64,000 nt of DNA. It comes from Cyanobacteriota bacterium (GTDB lineage: Bacteria > Cyanobacteriota > Cyanobacteriia > Elainellales > Elainellaceae). The translations under genes were made by a program, and so were the position numbers. Shown here piece by piece: positions 42,137-64,000 of this stretch (the stretch's first letter is position 1; each line of letters opens with the position of its first letter). The DNA lies in contig JBDNCP010000002.1 of the NCBI GenBank assembly GCA_046719575.1, forward strand, positions 2,689 to 66,688, written 5' to 3'. The notes below the pieces were generated by a model that was not told the origin of the DNA, ran no database searches, and saw only the letters and a list, made by a program, of their open reading frames with translations.

Positions 42137-43012
42137 ATGTCTGCCAAAACCCAGCTTATCGGTCTGCAATCTGCCCACTTTCGCCACCCGCTTGACTTGC
42201 AAGCAACGCAGGCATTGCAGCAGCTTCCGGGGCTGGATCTGGCGATTCGCGGGCTGATGGGGCCAGTAGCGGAGCAGTTTTTTCAGCTTGAGAACCTGGC
42301 ATCGGGCATTTTGGTGAGCGATCGCCAACTCCCCCAGCTTCACGGGCTGTTGCTAGAGGCGTGCAAGATTCTCGATCTGGAGCCGCCCCAACTCTACGTG
42401 CGGCAAAACCCCACGCCCAACGCCTACACCTTTGCCATGCGCGGCAAGCAGCCCTTTGTGGTGATTCACACCTCACTGATTGACCTGCTCACACCAGAGG
42501 AAATTCAGGCGGTGATTGCCCACGAACTGGGACATCTAAAGTGCGAACACAGCGTTTATCTGACGATGGCGAATATTGCGGTGTTGGCGGCGGGGCAGTT
42601 GGGGCTGCCGCTGGGGCCGCTGGTGGCGCAGGGCTTGCAAGAGCGGCTGCTAGAGTGGGTGCGCTGTGCCGAGTTTACGTGCGATCGCGCTGCGCTGCTG
42701 GTGGCCCAAGATGCCCGCGTGGTGGCATCGGTGCTGATGAAGCTGACGGGCGGCTCTCCTGCCCTGGCCAGCCAGCTAAATCTGGACGCATTTTTGGAGC
42801 AGGCCCGCGCCTACGACGACCTCAGCCTCAGCGAAATGGGCAAAATGCTCCGCGAAACCCAGACCGCCCAGCGCACACATCCGGTTCCGGTACTGCGGGC
42901 CCGAGAAATCGATCGCTGGGCCAGCAGCCAAGAATATGAAAAGCTGTTGCATCAGCGCCCAATCCCGTATAATGAAAAAGCTAAATCTCAGGGCGGGTGG
43001 CGAAACTGGTAG
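42137..43012 (+). CDS. M48 family zinc metallopeptidase
   Basis: PNAYT, AVIAHELGH, EFTCDRAA and THP.P.LRA motifs. Confidence 0.93.
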   Translation: MSAKTQLIGLQSAHFRHPLDLQATQALQQLPGLDLAIRGLMGPVAEQFFQLENLASGILVSDRQLPQLHGLLLEACKILDLEPPQLYVRQNPTPNAYTFAMRGKQPFVVIHTSLIDLLTPEEIQAVIAHELGHLKCEHSVYLTMANIAVLAAGQLGLPLGPLVAQGLQERLLEWVRCAEFTCDRAALLVAQDARVVASVLMKLTGGSPALASQLNLDAFLEQARAYDDLSLSEMGKMLRETQTAQRTHPVPVLRAREIDRWASSQEYEKLLHQRPIPYNEKAKSQGGWRNW

Positions 43013-55778: not shown

Positions 55779-57065
55779 TCACGGGCATCTGGGATAGAGG
55801 GACTGGGTGGGTGTGCGGCGGGGACTCAGCACCAGCACCGAATCCATGAACTGTTTCAACTCTGCCTGCCGGGTCGATGAACTCACGCCTGCTTGCAGAT
55901 GTCGCAGCACCAGTTGGATAAAGCGGCGACTGGCGGCGATCGCTGCACGGGTCGGCGTGCTGCTCAGGTTAATATAATCGCGTGGATCGCCGAAGAAAAT
56001 CCGGCCATTGGGCTGACGCATGGGCATAACCCGATGCTCCTGCGGATAAGATAACCCCCCCAGTCCAAAATAGCGGATAAACCGGATGGCTCCCGCGCCG
56101 CCGTTCTCGCGCTCTGTATGGGCCGGAGAATAGGAATCCTGAATCAGGTGCAGCGCCTCGCCCAGCCATTCAAAGGCAGCCTCGCGGGTGGGAGCAGTCA
56201 TGATCCGCTGATAGATGGCGACAAGCTGCTGCCGTGCTTCGGCGAGGGACTCTTCTAGTGGTTGGCACTTGTGGCGGCGCAGCATGTGGCGGCGCTGTTG
56301 CGATGGCTTGAAGTGGTTTGTGATTTTCTCCAGATCCACTCGGCGCACGCCCCGATTCATAGCCCCCAGCTCAGCAGGAGTAATGGGCAGCCCCTTGGCA
56401 GCCTCCCGATTCAGAGTTTCATGTCCCGGCGGAATGCGGCGCTTAATGTCTTCTACCACAAACGGATCGGCTTCGCGCTCGGCGGCCATTTCTTGCAGCG
56501 TTTCTAGATACTGCTGCTGAATTCGACGATCAAATGAGCGTGGCGCAGCCGATTCAAATTTGGATTCACGCTCGAATTCAAACTCAGATTCAAACTCAGA
56601 TTCAAATCCCTGTTCAAATTCCCATTCAAATTCCAATGCCAGTTCCCATTCTGCTTCGCGCTGTTTCGGTGGAGACACTTGCACAACCGGAGGCAGCTTG
56701 TCTCCCGGATTCAGCGTCGTCACCAGCACAATCCGGTTGCCGTTCTCGCCGCCGGGCCGATAGAAAATCGGCACCCCCCGCACCACCGTCACGCGGGTAT
56801 TGTAGCCAGGACGGGTTTGACGATAGTGTTTGGCGGCGCGAAACTCGCGGACGAAGGTGCGCGGATCGAACCGCATACCACCAGAGGCAACCCGTTGCAA
56901 AAAGCGCTGGGTGAAATGGATCGTGGGCAAAAAGCCCTGGCGCTTGAGATAGGCGGCAAACCGCTGAGCGATGCTGCGTCCGGCTTGCCCCCGGCGGCCA
57001 AATTCATCTTCAAACTCCGGAGCGGCGGAGCCGTTCTGGAGCGCTTTAGTTGAAAACGAGTTCAT
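55779..57065 (-). CDS. Two-domain hypothetical protein: small basic N-terminal domain, E/F-rich linker, Zn-PLC/S1-P1-like C-terminal domain
   Basis: TIHFTQRFLQR; linker EWELALEFEWEFEQGFESEFESEFEFERES; then GHETL, VD, H and LGEALHLIQDSYSPAH. The ORF is well supported; domain calls are from motifs only. Confidence 0.7.
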   Translation of the reverse strand: MNSFSTKALQNGSAAPEFEDEFGRRGQAGRSIAQRFAAYLKRQGFLPTIHFTQRFLQRVASGGMRFDPRTFVREFRAAKHYRQTRPGYNTRVTVVRGVPIFYRPGGENGNRIVLVTTLNPGDKLPPVVQVSPPKQREAEWELALEFEWEFEQGFESEFESEFEFERESKFESAAPRSFDRRIQQQYLETLQEMAAEREADPFVVEDIKRRIPPGHETLNREAAKGLPITPAELGAMNRGVRRVDLEKITNHFKPSQQRRHMLRRHKCQPLEESLAEARQQLVAIYQRIMTAPTREAAFEWLGEALHLIQDSYSPAHTERENGGAGAIRFIRYFGLGGLSYPQEHRVMPMRQPNGRIFFGDPRDYINLSSTPTRAAIAASRRFIQLVLRHLQAGVSSSTRQAELKQFMDSVLVLSPRRTPTQSLYPRCP

Positions 57066-57246: not shown

Positions 57247-58371
57247 TTACCCTTGCCCTGCTCTGAGCGGCGTGACGTTGCCGTTGCGGCTGGCGTTGAT
57301 GGGGACGACGCGCTGGGTGTGCCCGCGAAACGCAATGCCCAGCACCTCGGCACTGGTCAGCCATTCTTCGGACACGTCGGCGATTTCGCGCAGCAGGGCT
57401 TCAAATTCCGCCCGCGAGCTGTTGAGGATATACTTTTGCGCCAGCCAGCGAATGATTGATCGCCCGGAGGTGGCCATGCGGTGTCGCTGGGAGGCGTTGA
57501 CCTGCTTGTTGAAGTAGCGCAGCATCACTTCTTCGGCCACGTCCCAGGCGTTGTCTGCGCCAAACAGCTTGCGAACGTCCTCGGCTCCCAGAATGCGGAA
57601 GGCTTCGTCCAGCAGTTGCAGCGTCTCAATGCGAAATACGTTAACGTGTCCGTAAGAATTCCACTTTAAGTTATTTCGTAGATCCAGCCCAGCGCGGCGC
57701 ACGGTGGCGATGCTGCCAAAGCTGGGATCGTAGGCGCGTTCGCGGATCACGTCGGAAATCCGCTTGTCGCGCCAGAAGGCGGCGACGCTGTTGATAAACT
57801 GCGTGAACATGCCGTGGAATTGGGCGTTTGGCTTGGCGCTGGGCATGGGCGGCGTGGTGGTGTAGCCAAACACGCGGCGGTAGGTCTGCATTCGGTTGCG
57901 TTCGGCATAGCGGAGGATGCTGCGGCGATCAAACCGATATAGCCCGTAAGCGCCTTCACCCGTCGAAAGGCGCACTGCGCCCGCGTCAAACAGTTCTTGC
58001 AGCTTGCGGATGGCGCGGAAGATGCCGACGGTTTCCATCTGGTAGAGATAGTAAAGATCGGCGACGGATAAGATGCGATCGCTCGCTACTTGTTCGTCAT
58101 AGTCTTCCACACCTTGCGGTAGGCGCGTTTCGTCGATGCCTTTGGCAGCATCCTTACCCAAGCCGATCAAGTCGGCCAGTCCGCCGTCGGCAGGCACGGG
58201 CGCAGCGGCATTGGCGGCGATCGCCTGCGCCAACATATCTTCAATCCGCTGGGTCAGCGCGTCCGCAAGCTGGGGATTTTGAATCAACTGCGGGCCGAGT
58301 TGATCGACCAGCGTTTCTTTTAGCGCGGCAATGCGGTCGAGTAAACTTTGGTTTTCTCCGGTGGTGGTCAT
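57247..58371 (-). CDS. Hypothetical protein (374 aa), mostly helical
   Basis: Long ORF with GAGGAG RBS and host-like codon usage; no family I recognise. Confidence 0.85.
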   Translation of the reverse strand: MTTTGENQSLLDRIAALKETLVDQLGPQLIQNPQLADALTQRIEDMLAQAIAANAAAPVPADGGLADLIGLGKDAAKGIDETRLPQGVEDYDEQVASDRILSVADLYYLYQMETVGIFRAIRKLQELFDAGAVRLSTGEGAYGLYRFDRRSILRYAERNRMQTYRRVFGYTTTPPMPSAKPNAQFHGMFTQFINSVAAFWRDKRISDVIRERAYDPSFGSIATVRRAGLDLRNNLKWNSYGHVNVFRIETLQLLDEAFRILGAEDVRKLFGADNAWDVAEEVMLRYFNKQVNASQRHRMATSGRSIIRWLAQKYILNSSRAEFEALLREIADVSEEWLTSAEVLGIAFRGHTQRVVPINASRNGNVTPLRAGQG

Positions 58372-58531: not shown

Positions 58532-60241
58532 TCAATCGAGATCGTCGGGCGTGTCGCCAGAGGGCAATGTTACTTGCTCCGCCAGTTGGCGCACCTGATA
58601 AAGCTGGTAAGCCAAATCACGCAGCGCCCGAATCACGCCTTCGCGCCGGAACGCAGCATTGGGAATTGGGGTGTAGGTAGCAGCTTGGGTCAGCACCATG
58701 AGGCGATCGCTCGTCTCAGAAATCACCCGAATACCCAGCTTGCCGCCCGATTTTGCCAATATCGGCCCTTCCTCACTGGCGAATCGCCAGACCCAGTTCA
58801 GCAGCCCTTCCACGCTCATCGAATCTCCCAATTTAGCCGTTTCCGCAACTGGGTATCCAGTGCCATCCGGCAGTGGAAATGCAGGGCGGGGAACACCACA
58901 AGGCACTGCCATGTCCTTCTCTTCGGCCCTAGCGCGAGTGAAGTCGATGTAGACCGACAGCCGCTCCTCTGGCCCCAGGAAGAATAGCTCCATGATCCGG
59001 TAGACCTCCTGCACCGACTCGGCCACCACCGCCAGCGCCTGCGATAGCCGCACGAGCTGCGTGCCAATGTAGGCCCCAGCACTGGAATGCTGAGTATGCT
59101 TGTAGTCCACCCAACTCCGCCGCAGCGATTGCAAATAGTCTTTCAGCGTCAGGAAGTTGCTGTAGTTTTGCTCCTCTTCGACGGTGTTAATCTGTCCGCG
59201 TACCAGCCCAAAATATTCCGCCAGTTTCTTGAGCTGTCCGTCTGGGCGCTGATTGCTGCTGTCTAGGTCTTCGCCCAGCAACAGTTGGAACAAGTTATCC
59301 ACCCGCAAGATTCGCGGGCCGCCGCGTGCGCCCAGCTCTGCCAAAAGCTCCTGCATCTCGGTGCGAATGATAGAGCGGGTGGCTTCCATGTTTTCGCGGT
59401 CGGCGGATGGTTTCAGCGGGGTCAGTCCATTCAGCAACTGAATGCCGTCTTGAATTGCCGTTTTTGCCCGGTGATAGAGGCTGGCCTGCGCTCCGGTGAT
59501 GCCGCCGCCTAGGTCGGAGGCTCGGATGCTGACCGACTGCGGATTCCAGTCGTAGACCGTGCGCCCATCGACCTGGCGGGCGGTGAAGGTTTGCGTCAGC
59601 GTACTCACCAAAGTTTTGGGGTTATCCGTCCGCTGGGTATGCCCCAAAATGCTGCCCAGAGCGCTTTCCACTATGCCTTGCAGGTCGTCGCCAGTGGCAG
59701 GAGTGGAAACGGAAGTCATCCTGCCCGTCCGCTGGATTTGATCCAGACTGGGCAGCACATCTACGACTTGCAACTGTCCGGGTTGGTCTTTGGCGGGCTG
59801 AGCAGGAGGACGCTTGGATTGCTCAGGTTTCGACACTTCTAGCGCCACCAGTTCAATGGTGTAGGCCGTTGCCTGCCCGTCTCGCTTGACCGTATAGGGG
59901 GCAGGAACCTGTCCAACATCTTTAGCATCGGGCTTGTTGGGATCAGCCTTAGAAAACTGCTCTAGGGGAAAACTAGGCTGAACCTCCGTTTCTCCCAAAA
60001 ATTCACTGTCCCGAAAGAGTTTGAAATACACATCGGGTTCTGGTTCTGTTTCTCCCGGATCTTGGCGAAAGTCTTCCTTTGTAAAGGAGATTTCAAAGTA
60101 GCCCTGGGTATCTGTATGAGAAACACCGATGAGATCATCATATTGTCGATCTTTGTCGTGAAGTTCTACGCGGATGCGAGCTTCATATTGGCTTGGGTTT
60201 TTGATCACACGCCCGCGAAGCGTGTACCTGTCTCGTTTCAT
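58532..60241 (-). CDS. Hypothetical protein (569 aa) with an N-terminal transthyretin/prealbumin-like domain
   Basis: VELHDKD..YDDLIG..HTDTQGYFEISF...DF...E.EPDVYFKL pattern, then a P/Q linker and a helical body; AAGGAG RBS; starts 6 bp after the upstream stop. Confidence 0.8.
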   Translation of the reverse strand: MKRDRYTLRGRVIKNPSQYEARIRVELHDKDRQYDDLIGVSHTDTQGYFEISFTKEDFRQDPGETEPEPDVYFKLFRDSEFLGETEVQPSFPLEQFSKADPNKPDAKDVGQVPAPYTVKRDGQATAYTIELVALEVSKPEQSKRPPAQPAKDQPGQLQVVDVLPSLDQIQRTGRMTSVSTPATGDDLQGIVESALGSILGHTQRTDNPKTLVSTLTQTFTARQVDGRTVYDWNPQSVSIRASDLGGGITGAQASLYHRAKTAIQDGIQLLNGLTPLKPSADRENMEATRSIIRTEMQELLAELGARGGPRILRVDNLFQLLLGEDLDSSNQRPDGQLKKLAEYFGLVRGQINTVEEEQNYSNFLTLKDYLQSLRRSWVDYKHTQHSSAGAYIGTQLVRLSQALAVVAESVQEVYRIMELFFLGPEERLSVYIDFTRARAEEKDMAVPCGVPRPAFPLPDGTGYPVAETAKLGDSMSVEGLLNWVWRFASEEGPILAKSGGKLGIRVISETSDRLMVLTQAATYTPIPNAAFRREGVIRALRDLAYQLYQVRQLAEQVTLPSGDTPDDLD

Positions 60242-60247
60242 GCTGCG

Positions 60248-61624
60248 CTATCTCCTTGCTAAAGCTTTATAGAAGTTTTCAGTAATAAGTCCCGGCGCGG
60301 CCAGCCGTCGATCTAGCGCGTGGCGAGAGGCGCAGATCAGGAAGCGTTCGGGAATGATGCCCGGATCGTTGCCTTTGGCCAGCCGCTGCCCCGCTTCTTC
60401 GATGATTTGCTGGTGGTGCGGTTTGAAGCCGGTGACCTCTGCCAGCGATCGCCCGCCCAGTTCGCCATAAGGCGTGTAGCAAATCGTATCGACGACCAGC
60501 TTGTGGGCCCGATCGAAGGTTTGCAGCACGGCGGGTGGAATCGTACCCGCACGCGGATTGGGATACAGGCGCTTCCAGATGCGGTTGTAATAGTCCGCCA
60601 TTTGCGGAAAGCCCATCCGCCGCAATAGCTCCGTGCTGATGAACACGCGCAGGTAGGGCGTGGGATGGGGCGCACCGGGGTGAAAGAAGAGGGTGCTTTG
60701 GGGCGATCGCGAGGCAATGTCCATCAGCGAGGCGACGATGTAGGGGCCGCCCAGCAGCAGCCCCGACATATCCGCAAAGGTTTCGCTGTGCCATTTTGTC
60801 CACACGGCTGCCACATCCGGGGATAACCCCGCCTTCAGCAACCGATGGGCGATCGCCTTGGGCAGGGTTTGCCGCAGCCCCAGATCGGTCTGCAAGTTGT
60901 GGGCGACTTCGTGCAAAATCGCCCCCAGCGTCCAGGGATTCACCAGGCGGTGATAGGGCAGTTGGATCAGCGGAAACGGATTGAGCTGCTGGCTCAGCTT
61001 GGTCAGGGGAATGCCGCGCCGGAAGGTGGCGGGCGAAAACCCCGTCTTGACATAGGAGAAGGGCGGCGGAGCCGGGATCGACTTCGCCTTGCCCAGGCCC
61101 ATGTACACGTCCTGATAGCAGTCAAGCGCGATGCGATCGCACCCCAACAGCCAGGGCGCAAACTGGCTCTGCCGCTGCCCAAATAGCTCAAAGTAAAAGT
61201 CCCAGATTTGCTCGATCTTCCGCACCAGATCATGAGCCTGATCTTTGCGGGCGATCATCTGTTGCAGATGAGCCGTAGCGGGCTGGGCGATCGCCGCCTG
61301 AGTGCTGCCAGACACGGTTTTGGAGACACCCTGGAGGTGCGATCGCAATCGAGCAATAAGCTGGTTTACCGCGTCGATATGGGCATCGCTGGGGCTGGCC
61401 GCATCGGAGCCAAACTCACCCTGCCGGAAGGGGCGCAGCGCCGCTACATGGCGTGCCACGTTAATCGCCTGCGCCCGCAGCCAGGGGTCGAGGTTGGGCG
61501 GCTCCACAAAGCGGGCGATCGCCTGAGGCTCAGGCATGGTTTCCTGATATAGCTCGGCAAGCGCTAGCCGTGTTGCTCGATACGGGTCTATCCCGTTCTT
61601 TGATCCGTTCGTAAACCCATTCAT
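60248..61624 (-). CDS. Putative gluzincin-type zinc metallopeptidase (458 aa)
   Basis: ILHEVAH (aa 238-242), ETFAD about 40 aa later, then GGP and HP.PYLR; GGGAG RBS. Confidence 0.75.
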   Translation of the reverse strand: MNGFTNGSKNGIDPYRATRLALAELYQETMPEPQAIARFVEPPNLDPWLRAQAINVARHVAALRPFRQGEFGSDAASPSDAHIDAVNQLIARLRSHLQGVSKTVSGSTQAAIAQPATAHLQQMIARKDQAHDLVRKIEQIWDFYFELFGQRQSQFAPWLLGCDRIALDCYQDVYMGLGKAKSIPAPPPFSYVKTGFSPATFRRGIPLTKLSQQLNPFPLIQLPYHRLVNPWTLGAILHEVAHNLQTDLGLRQTLPKAIAHRLLKAGLSPDVAAVWTKWHSETFADMSGLLLGGPYIVASLMDIASRSPQSTLFFHPGAPHPTPYLRVFISTELLRRMGFPQMADYYNRIWKRLYPNPRAGTIPPAVLQTFDRAHKLVVDTICYTPYGELGGRSLAEVTGFKPHHQQIIEEAGQRLAKGNDPGIIPERFLICASRHALDRRLAAPGLITENFYKALARR

Positions 61625-61690: not shown

Positions 61691-62524
61691 CTATACGAAG
61701 GCCCGCTTGCGTGCGCTGCAACTGCACTGGCGGCTGTGAATCTGGCGCGATCGCTTCATCACAGCAGAGGCGCGGCGCGGATTGCCCAACACCTGCGCCA
61801 CATTGCCAGCCACCGTCCGCGCTGCTACGCGAGCGTTTACGGGCTGTCCTTTAGCGACGCGCTGCGCCAGGGTTGCCATGCTGCTGCGGGCGATCGTGGG
61901 GAAGGTGCGAACCAGCGGACGGGTCTGAGGGTTTTGGAGCAGCGCCCGACCGGCCTGAGCCAGAGGACGAATAACCTGGGGAACCACGCGAGAGATGACG
62001 GGTGCGGCTGCGCTGAGGCCCCGCGCCACCATTGGAATCAATGCGCCAATGAAGGCTTCGGCTTCGGCTTCGCTCTGGCTGTTGGCCGCCATGTGGGCCA
62101 GATGCTCAGCCATCACCTCATACTCGCTGGCCGGCGCGGTTTCAAATTCGGGCAGCACTTCAGGATGCTGCTCATATTCATACTCAAACTCGCCATCGCC
62201 CCCAAAGGCGCTGCCCAATCCCCGCAGCAGATTGCCAATAAAGGGATCGCCTTCGTATTCGCCTTCCAGTTCAAACTCGTTCAGGGGTGTTTCATACTCC
62301 ATCTCAAATTCGCGCTGGCCCCGGCGGCGACGGCGACGACGAAATAGCCCGCCGATTGCTTGAATGGCCATCGGTGCAGCCGCTTTAAGAATAGGAGCTA
62401 GCAAGGGCAAAAACTCTTCGCTCTCGTATTCGTACTCGTATGCGCGATCGCTTTCACCCAGAACGGCTGATTCAAATTCTGATTCCAGTTCTCGATCCAG
62501 GGTTTCAAGTTCGTACTGATACAT
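61691..62524 (-). CDS. Acidic/basic block protein B (277 aa) with E/Y/F-rich spacers and amphipathic segments
   Basis: AAGGAG RBS. Contains EYESEEFLPLLAPILK, R7, EYEGDPFIG and SEAEAEAFIG. The C-terminal half aligns with the gene at 62606. Confidence 0.88.
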   Translation of the reverse strand: MYQYELETLDRELESEFESAVLGESDRAYEYEYESEEFLPLLAPILKAAAPMAIQAIGGLFRRRRRRRGQREFEMEYETPLNEFELEGEYEGDPFIGNLLRGLGSAFGGDGEFEYEYEQHPEVLPEFETAPASEYEVMAEHLAHMAANSQSEAEAEAFIGALIPMVARGLSAAAPVISRVVPQVIRPLAQAGRALLQNPQTRPLVRTFPTIARSSMATLAQRVAKGQPVNARVAARTVAGNVAQVLGNPRRASAVMKRSRQIHSRQCSCSARKRAFV

Positions 62525-62605: not shown

Positions 62606-63481
62606 CTAGCCCCGTACTTTCTTGCGGGCAACTGGAGCAGGTTGGTTCACTTTCTGCGCGACTTTGGCAGAATTGGCGACAATTCGAGCAGCGGTCATGG
62701 GATTTTTGAGCGCTTTGCGGGTTTGGGCGGCCATCACCTGAGCCACGACCGGGCGGGTAATTGGCTTGCCCTGCGCGGCTTTCTGAGTCAACACTTGCCC
62801 CGTCCGCATAGCGACCGTCGGCAAAATTCGCACCAGCGGTCGAGTCGTCGGGTTTTGGCGTAGCCCCCGCGTCAGTTGGGCGCTGGCCTTAACGATCGCC
62901 GGAATTTGCTTTTGCACCGCAGCCGCTTTGGTCGGCAACACGCGAGTCACAGCAGCCCCCGCAAAGGCCTCGGCTTCGGCTTCGTTTTGGGCTTTGGCAG
63001 CAGCGCCGGCCAGCGCTTCGGCAACGGCTTCCATCTGCGGCGTGGCGACAGACTCAAACTCGCCCGCCCATTCCCCTTCAAACTCCATCTGTCCGGCCGT
63101 TTCATATTCAAATTCGTACTCGCTCTCGCGCATCATCTGTCCCAGCGCTGCGCCAAGCTGTGGCCCGCCAATGGCATTGCCGATCAGACGAGTGGCATGG
63201 GGAATCACTTTCGGTAGGATGGGTTTGAGCCGCCCAGCAAGACGGCGCACCGTACTCAAAAAGGCTTCACTTTCGTATTCGCCCTCATACTCACTTTCAT
63301 ATTCGCCTTCGTATTCACCTTCGCCCAGTCCGAGGGCATTCATTGCGCCGCCGATGAGTCCACCCAAGAATTCTTCGCCTTCGTATTCATGCTGAACTTC
63401 GTATTCATTTTGCAGGTCATATTCAAATTCGCTTTCAAACTCATTCGTGAGTTCCTGTTGCAGAGTTTCACCGTCCAACAT
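62606..63481 (-). CDS. Acidic/basic block protein A (291 aa), paralogue of the gene at 61691
   Basis: GGAG RBS. Contains EYEGEEFLGG, EYESEAFLST and NEAEAEAFAG. Shares QNP.TRPLVR..PT...G.P...NP with the paralogue. Confidence 0.88.
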   Translation of the reverse strand: MLDGETLQQELTNEFESEFEYDLQNEYEVQHEYEGEEFLGGLIGGAMNALGLGEGEYEGEYESEYEGEYESEAFLSTVRRLAGRLKPILPKVIPHATRLIGNAIGGPQLGAALGQMMRESEYEFEYETAGQMEFEGEWAGEFESVATPQMEAVAEALAGAAAKAQNEAEAEAFAGAAVTRVLPTKAAAVQKQIPAIVKASAQLTRGLRQNPTTRPLVRILPTVAMRTGQVLTQKAAQGKPITRPVVAQVMAAQTRKALKNPMTAARIVANSAKVAQKVNQPAPVARKKVRG

Positions 63482-63866: not shown

Positions 63867-64000
63867 ATGATTGATACCCAGAAAAGCAATAAACATGATT
63901 CAGATTCCTTTGATCTGAATCGACTTGAGCGGGACGTATTGACTCGCGTCCTCAGCCAGACAGCCGTATTTTGGAAGCCCATCAAGGTCTTTCAGGACGC
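63867..64000 (+). CDS. 5' end of an ORF divergent from the cluster, truncated by the window edge
   Basis: MIDTQKSNKHDSDSFDLNRLERDVLTRVLSQTAVFWKPIKVFQD is open to the window end. Confidence 0.45.
   Translation, partial: MIDTQKSNKHDSDSFDLNRLERDVLTRVLSQTAVFWKPIKVFQD

Follow-up and report, generated by a model that had tools for sequence, protein, structure and literature searches.

The locus described here raises the question of what an HExxH protein of 458 amino acids (aa) does directly behind a pair of proteins that are built from glutamate-rich tracts. It lies in a window of 64,000 nucleotides (nt), the whole stretch of DNA that was analysed, which comes from a cyanobacterium of the Elainellaceae (assembly GCA_046719575.1, contig JBDNCP010000002.1, positions 2,689 to 66,688), and all coordinates below are those of the window unless a locus is named. 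A sequence-only reading of this DNA had taken the protein for a dedicated peptidase that matures or triggers the two block proteins, A and B, encoded upstream of it. Taken as a whole, that reading is partly supported by our analysis. Judged from sequence, the protein is very probably a zinc peptidase. We lean, if only slightly, towards A and B being its substrates, and the positions of cleavage, at the junctions where a tract of alternating Glu and aromatic residues gives way to Phe, are offered tentatively. The combined picture, a soluble M48-like zinc endopeptidase that is kept latent by a plug and acts as dedicated processor of A and B at tract-to-Phe junctions, has in our judgement a little better than an even chance of being right.

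The gene and the motifs that suggest its chemistry are as follows.

60248-61624, minus strand: gene of the M48-like HExxH peptidase, 458 aa, seen as an open reading frame (ORF) and its translation.

60899-60913, minus strand: HEVAH, aa 238-242, which lies on helix 234-247 and is predicted to supply the catalytic Glu and two His that ligate zinc.

60770-60784, minus strand: ETFAD, aa 281-285, in which E281 is the predicted third zinc ligand, on helix 279-292.

60647-60667, minus strand: HPTPYLR, aa 320-326, the HPx4R 'active-site plug' motif of M48.

On the translation of the ORF, HEVAH falls exactly at the place that had been claimed for it (nt 60913-60899), and ETFAD follows the second His of HEVAH by 39 residues, where about 40 had been estimated. 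GGP (aa 292-294) and the late HP..YLR were also found where the sequence-only reading had put them. The ATG is preceded at 7 nt by a Shine-Dalgarno sequence, GGGAG. The stop codon of block protein B lies 66 nt before the peptidase start, and 6 nt separate the peptidase stop from the start of a gene for a 569-aa protein. Hydropathy analysis of the 458-aa chain (maximum KD19 1.40) gave no transmembrane segment, a signal peptide was not found, and the net charge is +14; the peptidase is a soluble, cytoplasmic protein. No other member of its family is present in the window's genome, where it is single copy.

A word-indexed search returned more than 3000 homologue clusters (90% identity), every one of which is titled 'hypothetical protein' and carries no Pfam domain. 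A HMMER search of 1.84 billion representatives found 1511 proteins at E<=1e-3, 676 at 1e-10 and 95 at 1e-30, the 1511 family representatives being clusters at 50% identity. For analysis of conservation we used an alignment of 45 full-length homologues with 23-82% identity. R151, D163, P188, P223, H238, E239, H242, D285, P321, R326, W350 and A436 are invariant in all 45. Within ETFAD, E281 is kept in 44, A284 in 42 and D285 in 45 homologues. H320 is found in 38 of the 45 and is replaced by Tyr in the remaining seven, which form a subclade with 'GPNWGAYPT'; Tyr in this column recalls the Tyr-switch zinc ligation in other metzincins. Because the catalytic motifs are invariant across 45 homologues down to 23% identity, the HExxH/ExxAD/HPx4R set is, as far as an alignment can tell, the conserved heart of a genuine family and not a product of chance.

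The spacing and nature of these motifs point to peptidase family M48. In BepA, zinc is bound by H136 and H140 of HExxH, by E201 and by H246; the last of these is the fourth ligand of the latent enzyme and lies within the HPX4R 'active-site plug', conserved across the whole of PF01435, and the pattern H-E-x-x-H-x(30,140)-H-P-x(4)-R is diagnostic for M48 (Bryant et al., PMC7950410). The peptidase fits this pattern with 77 residues from H242 to H320, inside the limits of 30-140. In the window's genome, the pattern was matched by 9 of 14,285 six-frame ORFs, namely six Pfam M48 genes, the peptidase ORF and two short ORFs, and the shuffled proteome gave two matches. When the Glu motif was included (HExxH...Exx[AS]D...HPx4R), matches fell to six of the 14,285 ORFs, five Pfam M48 genes and the peptidase ORF, with none in the shuffled set.

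For comparison of profiles, 30 M48 genes were taken from the window's genome and twelve related genomes, giving 25 distinct sequences. These cyanobacterial M48 proteins show HE[IL]xH, then E[FY]xAD 52-75 residues on, and then THPxxxxR. Alignment of the family profile to the 25 sequences by hhalign reached a probability of 70% (P 4e-5) over 113 columns with the three motifs in register, and the controls gave at most 0.2% for 30 column shuffles (score <=17.4 vs 46.0) and 0.1% for the reversed alignment. FtsH-type M41 reached 4% over merely 15 columns of the HExxH helix, and ImmA/IrrE-type M78 reached 34% over 94 columns. Among the comparators was a bona fide Pfam M48 peptidase that lies in the window itself, 17 kb away (42137-43012, 76.7 bits). 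With the diagnostic pattern matched and all three motifs aligned to M48 by profile, the earlier description of a gluzincin-type HExxH protein with an M48-type HP..xR motif is upheld. We call the peptidase M48-like: it has the same active-site design and is probably a remote relative, or else a structural variant, of M48. It is not filed as a PF01435 member, because the hidden Markov model (HMM) of that family misses the protein, Glu follows HExxH at a shorter distance, and the chain is soluble and extended by a large helical part. PF01435 was not matched by any of the 45 homologues, and five of them weakly touched PF04228 (best E 0.0046).

The AlphaFold2 (AF2) model of the peptidase, computed from the 45-sequence alignment, forms a single body with a mean predicted local distance difference test score (pLDDT) of 93.8 and a predicted template modelling score (pTM) of 0.88. 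Its N-terminal part consists of a poorly ordered segment (aa 1-45) and helices 46-62, 80-113, 117-152 and 156-175. Short strands follow at 189-193, 199-201 and 219-223, then come the HExxH helix 234-247, two helices spanning 250-277, and helix 279-292 with E281 and D285. C-terminal to the Glu helix are a short helix and a loop with H320-P321, and helix 323-336 carries R326. In the model, this order of sheet, active-site helix and Glu helix is the zincin order.

Evidence that the peptidase is concerned with A and B comes from the constancy of their arrangement. The peptidase gene is third in a row of co-oriented genes, which runs in the order A, B, peptidase, 569-aa protein, 374-aa protein and 428-aa protein.

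62606-63481, minus strand: block protein A, 291 aa, a paralogue of B, with EAEAEAF at aa 167-173 (nt 62963-62983).

61691-62524, minus strand: block protein B, 277 aa, with (Glu-aromatic)n tracts, EAEAEAF at aa 152-158 (nt 62051-62071) and, at the C-terminus, a basic domain.

58532-60241, minus strand: 569-aa protein, conserved across phyla in its C-terminal ~370 aa only, with a variable N-terminal beta-sandwich part.

57247-58371, minus strand: 374-aa core protein, all-helical, 55-93% identical across phyla.

55779-57065, minus strand: 428-aa variable tail gene, with a Glu/aromatic tract at aa ~137-172.

63867-64000, plus strand: a LuxR/GerE regulator gene (140 aa), divergent, of which the 5' part lies here and the rest beyond the window end (GerE, 63.9 bits).

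A scan with one genome per species gave 369 relatives, 80 loci were fetched, and the synteny counts cover 82 loci. Peptidase identities in the fetched loci are 57-92%, and about ten phyla share one gene order, as illustrated by an Anaerolineae contig and a Blastocatellia contig. The labels of the fetched loci are Cyanobacteriota, Acidobacteriota, Chloroflexota/Thermomicrobiota, Actinomycetota, Planctomycetota, Pseudomonadota, Deinococcota, Dormibacterota and Binatota, together with two Heliomicrobium bins; the related loci are mostly metagenome bins, and some phylum labels (e.g. those of the Heliomicrobium bins) may be wrong. In BLAST searches with the window proteins, A-like genes were found in 80/82 loci and B-like genes, directly upstream of the peptidase, in 79/82. 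The conserved C-terminal ~370 aa of the 569-aa protein and the homologue of the 374-aa protein were each found in 72/82, a LuxR homologue in 62/82 (mostly divergent upstream), and a homologue of the 428-aa tail protein in 7/82. The two loci without A/B end just upstream of the peptidase, and A/B-type genes are present in 80/80 loci that have an upstream flank. In this sense of strict synteny, the peptidase is indeed 'dedicated' to the block proteins, as had been claimed. The same holds for a 33%-identical relative (L120, on a 2-kb contig), which is preceded by a 148-aa mini A/B protein with an acidic N-terminal half, DAEDEFLGALAGL and RRLPTIVRTAT; therefore the A/B pairing reaches well beyond the close clade. 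The mini protein also gives a weak Pfam match to 'Frog antimicrobial peptide' at FLGALAGL (E 0.03).

The regulator gene in this neighbourhood offers another explanation, in which the protein is a protease of the ImmA/IrrE/CapP kind that, on a signal, cuts the LuxR/GerE regulator or another repressor and thereby switches the operon on, A and B not being substrates. A GerE-family regulator does accompany the cluster in the 62 loci counted above, the hhalign value for M78 points the same way, and modules of a metalloprotease with a helix-turn-helix (HTH) protein are known to control defence operons. Nevertheless, the peptidase gene is not adjacent to the regulator, which is divergent and two genes away, and lies behind A and B; moreover, a distant clade of the family that is linked to CHAT genes has no such regulator alongside. 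The match to M48 is better than that to M78 and includes HPx4R, which M78 lacks, and Pfam gave no match of the peptidase to M78 (PF06114). The positive charge that is specific to the A/B-linked clade, considered below, matches acidic tracts and not a small HTH protein. We therefore regard cleavage of a regulator as improbable.

The tracts are confined to this system. ORFs with Glu/aromatic tracts in these loci are ~117 upstream A/B genes and five downstream tail genes, with zero elsewhere among the 5043 ORFs of the loci. In block protein B, each (Glu-aromatic)n tract is followed by a Phe-led hydrophobic peptide. Over 494 ends of (E-x)n tracts in 147 proteins, Phe stands at position +1 in 22% and at +2 in 30%, against a background of 3.3%, and typical forms of the tract end are EE-F[LF], EA-F and EQ-F. 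The best conserved A/B motif is EAEAEA[FM]xGA (>=90%), and it lies where the acidic half meets the basic C-terminal domain (TRPxVRxxPTIxRRT...). Hydrophobicity in the cluster is highest (KD19 1.64) in aa 159-177 of protein B, IGALIPMVARGLSAAAPVI, right after EAEAEAF. If the predicted cut occurs, this stretch would become a new N-terminus. Its counterpart in the mini protein of L120 is the FLGALAGL with the weak 'Frog antimicrobial peptide' match.

The charge of the enzyme is complementary to these tracts. Peptidases of the A/B-linked clade have net charges of +7 to +77, with a mean of +19 for the 12 closest, and their strand region 177-233, beside the active-site helix, averages +7. The net charge of CHAT-linked peptidases averages about -8. 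Such complementarity fits a peptidase that binds acidic tracts. Many zincins cut before a hydrophobic P1' residue. The facts of synteny, junctions and charge are thus consistent with a peptidase that attaches to poly-Glu tracts and cleaves ahead of a hydrophobic P1' residue, without proving it.

These data also suit an enzyme that degrades its partners. According to this explanation, which we consider unlikely, the peptidase is a safeguard, similar to an antitoxin, that constantly degrades A/B or the tagged tail toxins, and harm ensues when it is inhibited or outrun. Synteny and charge agree with a degrading enzyme as well as with a maturing one. In addition, operons outside cyanobacteria carry, downstream of the homologue of the 374-aa protein, an M20 dipeptidase gene (NF006053, 557 bits; 39 loci, e.g. 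the L003:17048-19350 region and L005) and an Amidohydro_2 gene (31 loci). This pair suggests further, perhaps complete, breakdown of released peptides. On the other hand, the architecture of A and B, in which acidic tracts alternate with hydrophobic or basic modules at sharp junctions, resembles a proprotein with defined cuts and not a bulk substrate, and conservation of the HPx4R plug suggests that the enzyme is normally latent.

According to our preferred reading of a latent processing enzyme, zinc would be held by H238 and H242 of the HExxH helix and by E281 of the next-but-two helix, and E239 would serve as catalytic base. H320 of the HPx4R loop (Tyr in one subclade) would be a removable fourth ligand or plug, as in BepA, and would hold the enzyme in a latent state as long as no substrate or partner has dislodged it. 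The (Glu-aromatic)n tract would lie extended, as a beta-strand, next to edge strand 219-223 on the basic side of the cleft. The peptidase would then cut A and B at tract-to-Phe junctions, EE|F-L/F and EAEAEA|F-I-G-A-L, the predicted sites lying at F38, F74 and F173 of A and at F38, F95 and F158 of B. Each cut would free hydrophobic or basic modules of A/B from acidic pro-regions. Tagged tail proteins such as the product of the gene at 55779 would probably be processed too, and the M20 dipeptidase, where present, would clear the released acidic peptides.

Relatives of the peptidase also occur in a second setting. A distant clade with 23-30% identity to the peptidase has an intact HExxH/ExxAD/HPx4R triad and is acidic, not basic.

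HExxH-CHAT modules of this clade: L116:10001-12911, L117:9586-14466, L118:10001-14394, L152:6001-10589, L153:6001-10503, L154:4708-10410.

In each of the six contexts a caspase-like CHAT gene of ~420 aa (496 aa in L116) comes immediately after the HExxH gene; five of them have a second such CHAT gene, of ~460-600 aa, behind the first, and in two a phospholipase D-type gene (PLDc_2) stands in front of the module. Genes for TIR, PIN, trypsin, integrase, EAD2, baeRF and toxin-antitoxin proteins lie around the modules, in surroundings that resemble defence islands. We considered the partners in these loci as equivalents of the 569-aa and 374-aa proteins or of the tract proteins and rejected the idea, since acidic-tract ORFs are missing from the loci and nothing in them resembles the 569-aa or 374-aa proteins. 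The HExxH-CHAT module is not among the models of PADLOC, and literature searches (tract motifs; CHAT with metalloprotease) found no description of this module or of the A/B operon. The second setting shows that accessory systems of the conflict type can use the HExxH protein over again as a module, and therefore the reading as a regulated protease is strengthened. One can go further and suppose, as a possible but doubtful generalisation, that the family is a trigger-protease module of M48 design which no fewer than two conflict or cell-fate systems have taken up. In the A/B system the tract would then be a portable beta-strand handle, and the enzyme a tag-directed proprotein convertase that frees modules from A/B and from swappable tagged toxins; in the CHAT system it would work with the tandem CHAT pair as a metalloprotease-caspase cascade.

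Comparison of the two clades also helps to understand the N-terminal region, which is composed of two segments.

61097-61276, minus strand: aa 117-176, two long helices, the family-wide core (WDFF..QR, D163-xIAxDCY).

61277-61624, minus strand: aa 1-116, the clade-specific N-terminal part and candidate for partner docking, with aa 1-45 disordered and helices 46-62 and 80-113.

The sequence-only reading had described ~180 aa of helical N-terminal sequence, with which the modelled helices agree, and had suggested that this region may be a sensor or a substrate-docking module. Distant members align to the peptidase just from about aa 120-137 on, and beside the invariant R151 and D163 this part has L159, A166 and C169 conserved in at least 90% of the 45 homologues. 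Because it is conserved family-wide, including the clade with other partners, the alignment indicates that aa ~117-176 is enzyme core, not variable sensor. Conservation of aa 46-116 is restricted to the A/B-associated clade (Q52, N55, R58, L63, F71, P78 and N87 are invariant in the 12-sequence set), and aa 1-116 is absent or unalignable in the CHAT-associated clade. Furthermore, aa 1-45 is variable, and pLDDT is 39-73 for aa 1-40. Hence the idea of one N-terminal module did not stand, and aa ~46-116 alone, because they are specific to the A/B-associated clade, may be candidates for partner docking.

A number of results weigh against our interpretation, and they should be taken together. Searches of Pfam, NCBIfam, PADLOC and PHROGs returned no match for the peptidase (in Pfam, none at E<=1), sequence searches of PDB with the peptidase and the family profile (phmmer/hmmsearch) gave coiled-coil noise only, and a whole-genome search with the PF01435 HMM hit nine other places and not the peptidase ORF. 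The relation to M48 thus depends on the motifs and on one profile match of 70%. Foldseek, which the sequence-only reading had proposed as a check on a predicted structure, did not find a significant neighbour of the AF2 model in PDB (best E 0.27-0.7, unrelated helical proteins) or in BFVD, where a Marseillevirus 'Peptidase family M48' model stood at rank 10 (E 0.85). The tract of the 428-aa protein has no EEF[LF]G junction at its end. The conserved A/B junctions could instead serve the 569-aa or 374-aa proteins for docking. Finally, since the operons outside cyanobacteria also encode an M20 dipeptidase, the HExxH protein is not the sole peptidase there.

Some of these points would agree with a zinc site that serves no proteolysis. 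The protein might be a metal-dependent hydrolase of some other kind, or it might only bind the acidic tracts, as a scaffold, and pass the tract proteins on to the 569-aa and 374-aa proteins. The missing fold neighbour in PDB and BFVD is in line with this, as is the helical bundle, which makes up two thirds of the chain. In addition, the peptidase maintains ~60% identity between phyla, which is more than is usual for a simple processing enzyme and would suit a component of a tight complex. Against these arguments, E239 is invariant in 45/45 homologues and the full M48 triad including R326 is retained in both clades, and inactive zincin homologues usually lose such residues. Accordingly, a protein without peptidase activity seems to us very improbable.

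The operon varies around its conserved genes. The module is accessory and patchy, being present in 13/201 sampled cyanobacterial genomes and 12/100 genera, and in the protein tree Cyanobacteriota form one clade, with Acidobacteriota split at least six times by well-supported branches and other phyla nested among them. Ordinary genes flank the cluster, with a HAD hydrolase, DUF3177 and a sulfotransferase on one side and malate dehydrogenase at the opposite end. Conservation of the 374-aa protein equals that of the peptidase (55-61% identity across phyla; 68 invariant columns in 36 sequences), so that it constitutes a second dark core component; its AF2 model is all-helical with pLDDT 72, and no fold neighbour was found for it in PDB. 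Searches of Pfam, NCBIfam, PADLOC, PHROGs and PDB returned nothing for the cluster partners of the peptidase, and none of the six cluster proteins matched NCBIfam or PADLOC. Outside cyanobacteria, a 178-aa helical gene directly follows the peptidase in 50 loci (e.g. L003:11342-11878, L005). Among tail genes, a homologue at L009:14538-15422 matches the 428-aa protein in its N-terminal domain (69% over 134 aa) and ends in a GIY-YIG nuclease, and those of the other cyanobacterial loci L014, L016, L027 and L029 are unrelated to it and have the same Glu/aromatic tract, with very long (EYEG)n runs in L027. In one metagenomic protein (P0122, 646 aa), Amidase_2 (74.6 bits) is fused before an HExxH protein of the A/B clade (57% identity), a single case that hints at a link to the cell wall. 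Apparent substrate-peptidase fusions in P0139, P0143, P0146 and P0192 were discarded as frame-shifted high-GC gene calls, and just P0122 looks genuine.

The chemistry proposed here is known in kind, a gluzincin with an M48-type site, and it is the scaffold, the operon and the logic of the partners that are undescribed. An M48-type site in a new soluble scaffold gives testable chemistry to thousands of 'hypothetical proteins'. The presumably dead variant E239A and mutants of the putative H320 plug would be convenient handles on an undescribed operon of six to nine genes, and the peptidase family ties the A/B operon to a second unnamed module, HExxH-CHAT-CHAT. If it is true that the Glu-aromatic tract is a tag read by a protease, it would represent a new portable principle of recognition.

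Among known enzymes, the closest in design are those of M48 (BepA, HtpX, YcaL, LoiP, Ste24/ZMPSTE24, Oma1). As in these, the peptidase has HExxH on an active-site helix, the Glu of ExxAD on a later helix, an HPx4R loop motif of the same spacing class and, between the helices of HExxH and Glu, a 'lid' segment that varies. Unlike these, it has no transmembrane helices, signal peptide or tetratricopeptide repeat domain, it has ~130 additional N-terminal helical residues, 60 of them belonging to the family core, and its HExxH-to-Glu spacing is 43 residues compared with 52-75 in the M48 proteins used here. M48 enzymes act in quality control of envelope and membrane, whereas the peptidase sits in a dedicated operon.

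The sequence-only reading had drawn a parallel to protease-gated bacterial gasdermins. In operons of gasdermins with CHAT, trypsin or subtilase proteases, as in the A/B operon, a protease gene adjoins genes of proteins that resemble inhibited precursors, and distribution is patchy and accessory. The peptidase differs in being a metallopeptidase, and its operon has two extra conserved core proteins. Pfam and PADLOC detected neither a gasdermin nor a known pore-former or other recognised effector among the six cluster proteins, and unlike the case of defence systems, there is no evidence of phage defence for the A/B operon. The parallel is an analogy only. A zincin-like gene paired with a predicted precursor in conflict neighbourhoods is also typical of FxSxx-COOH/HEXXH-motif systems (Haft; Kaur et al. 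2020, PMC7159879). The present family is a different one without an NCBIfam HEXXH match, and the cluster lacks a radical-SAM/SPASM gene; moreover, FxSxx-COOH precursors are small and evolve fast, whereas the A/B-type proteins are of 260-340 aa and highly conserved.

For A and B themselves, the nearest likeness is to precursors with anionic propieces, such as amphibian brevinins and temporins and the propieces of defensins, in which acidic spacers, as in A and B, stand directly before Phe-led amphipathic or hydrophobic peptides. In contrast to these precursors, A and B are bacterial and cytoplasmic, with no signal peptides, and their spacers are strict alternations of Glu and aromatic residues. 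They also carry a large conserved basic C-terminal domain, and the enzyme proposed to process them would be a zinc peptidase in place of a furin-type convertase.

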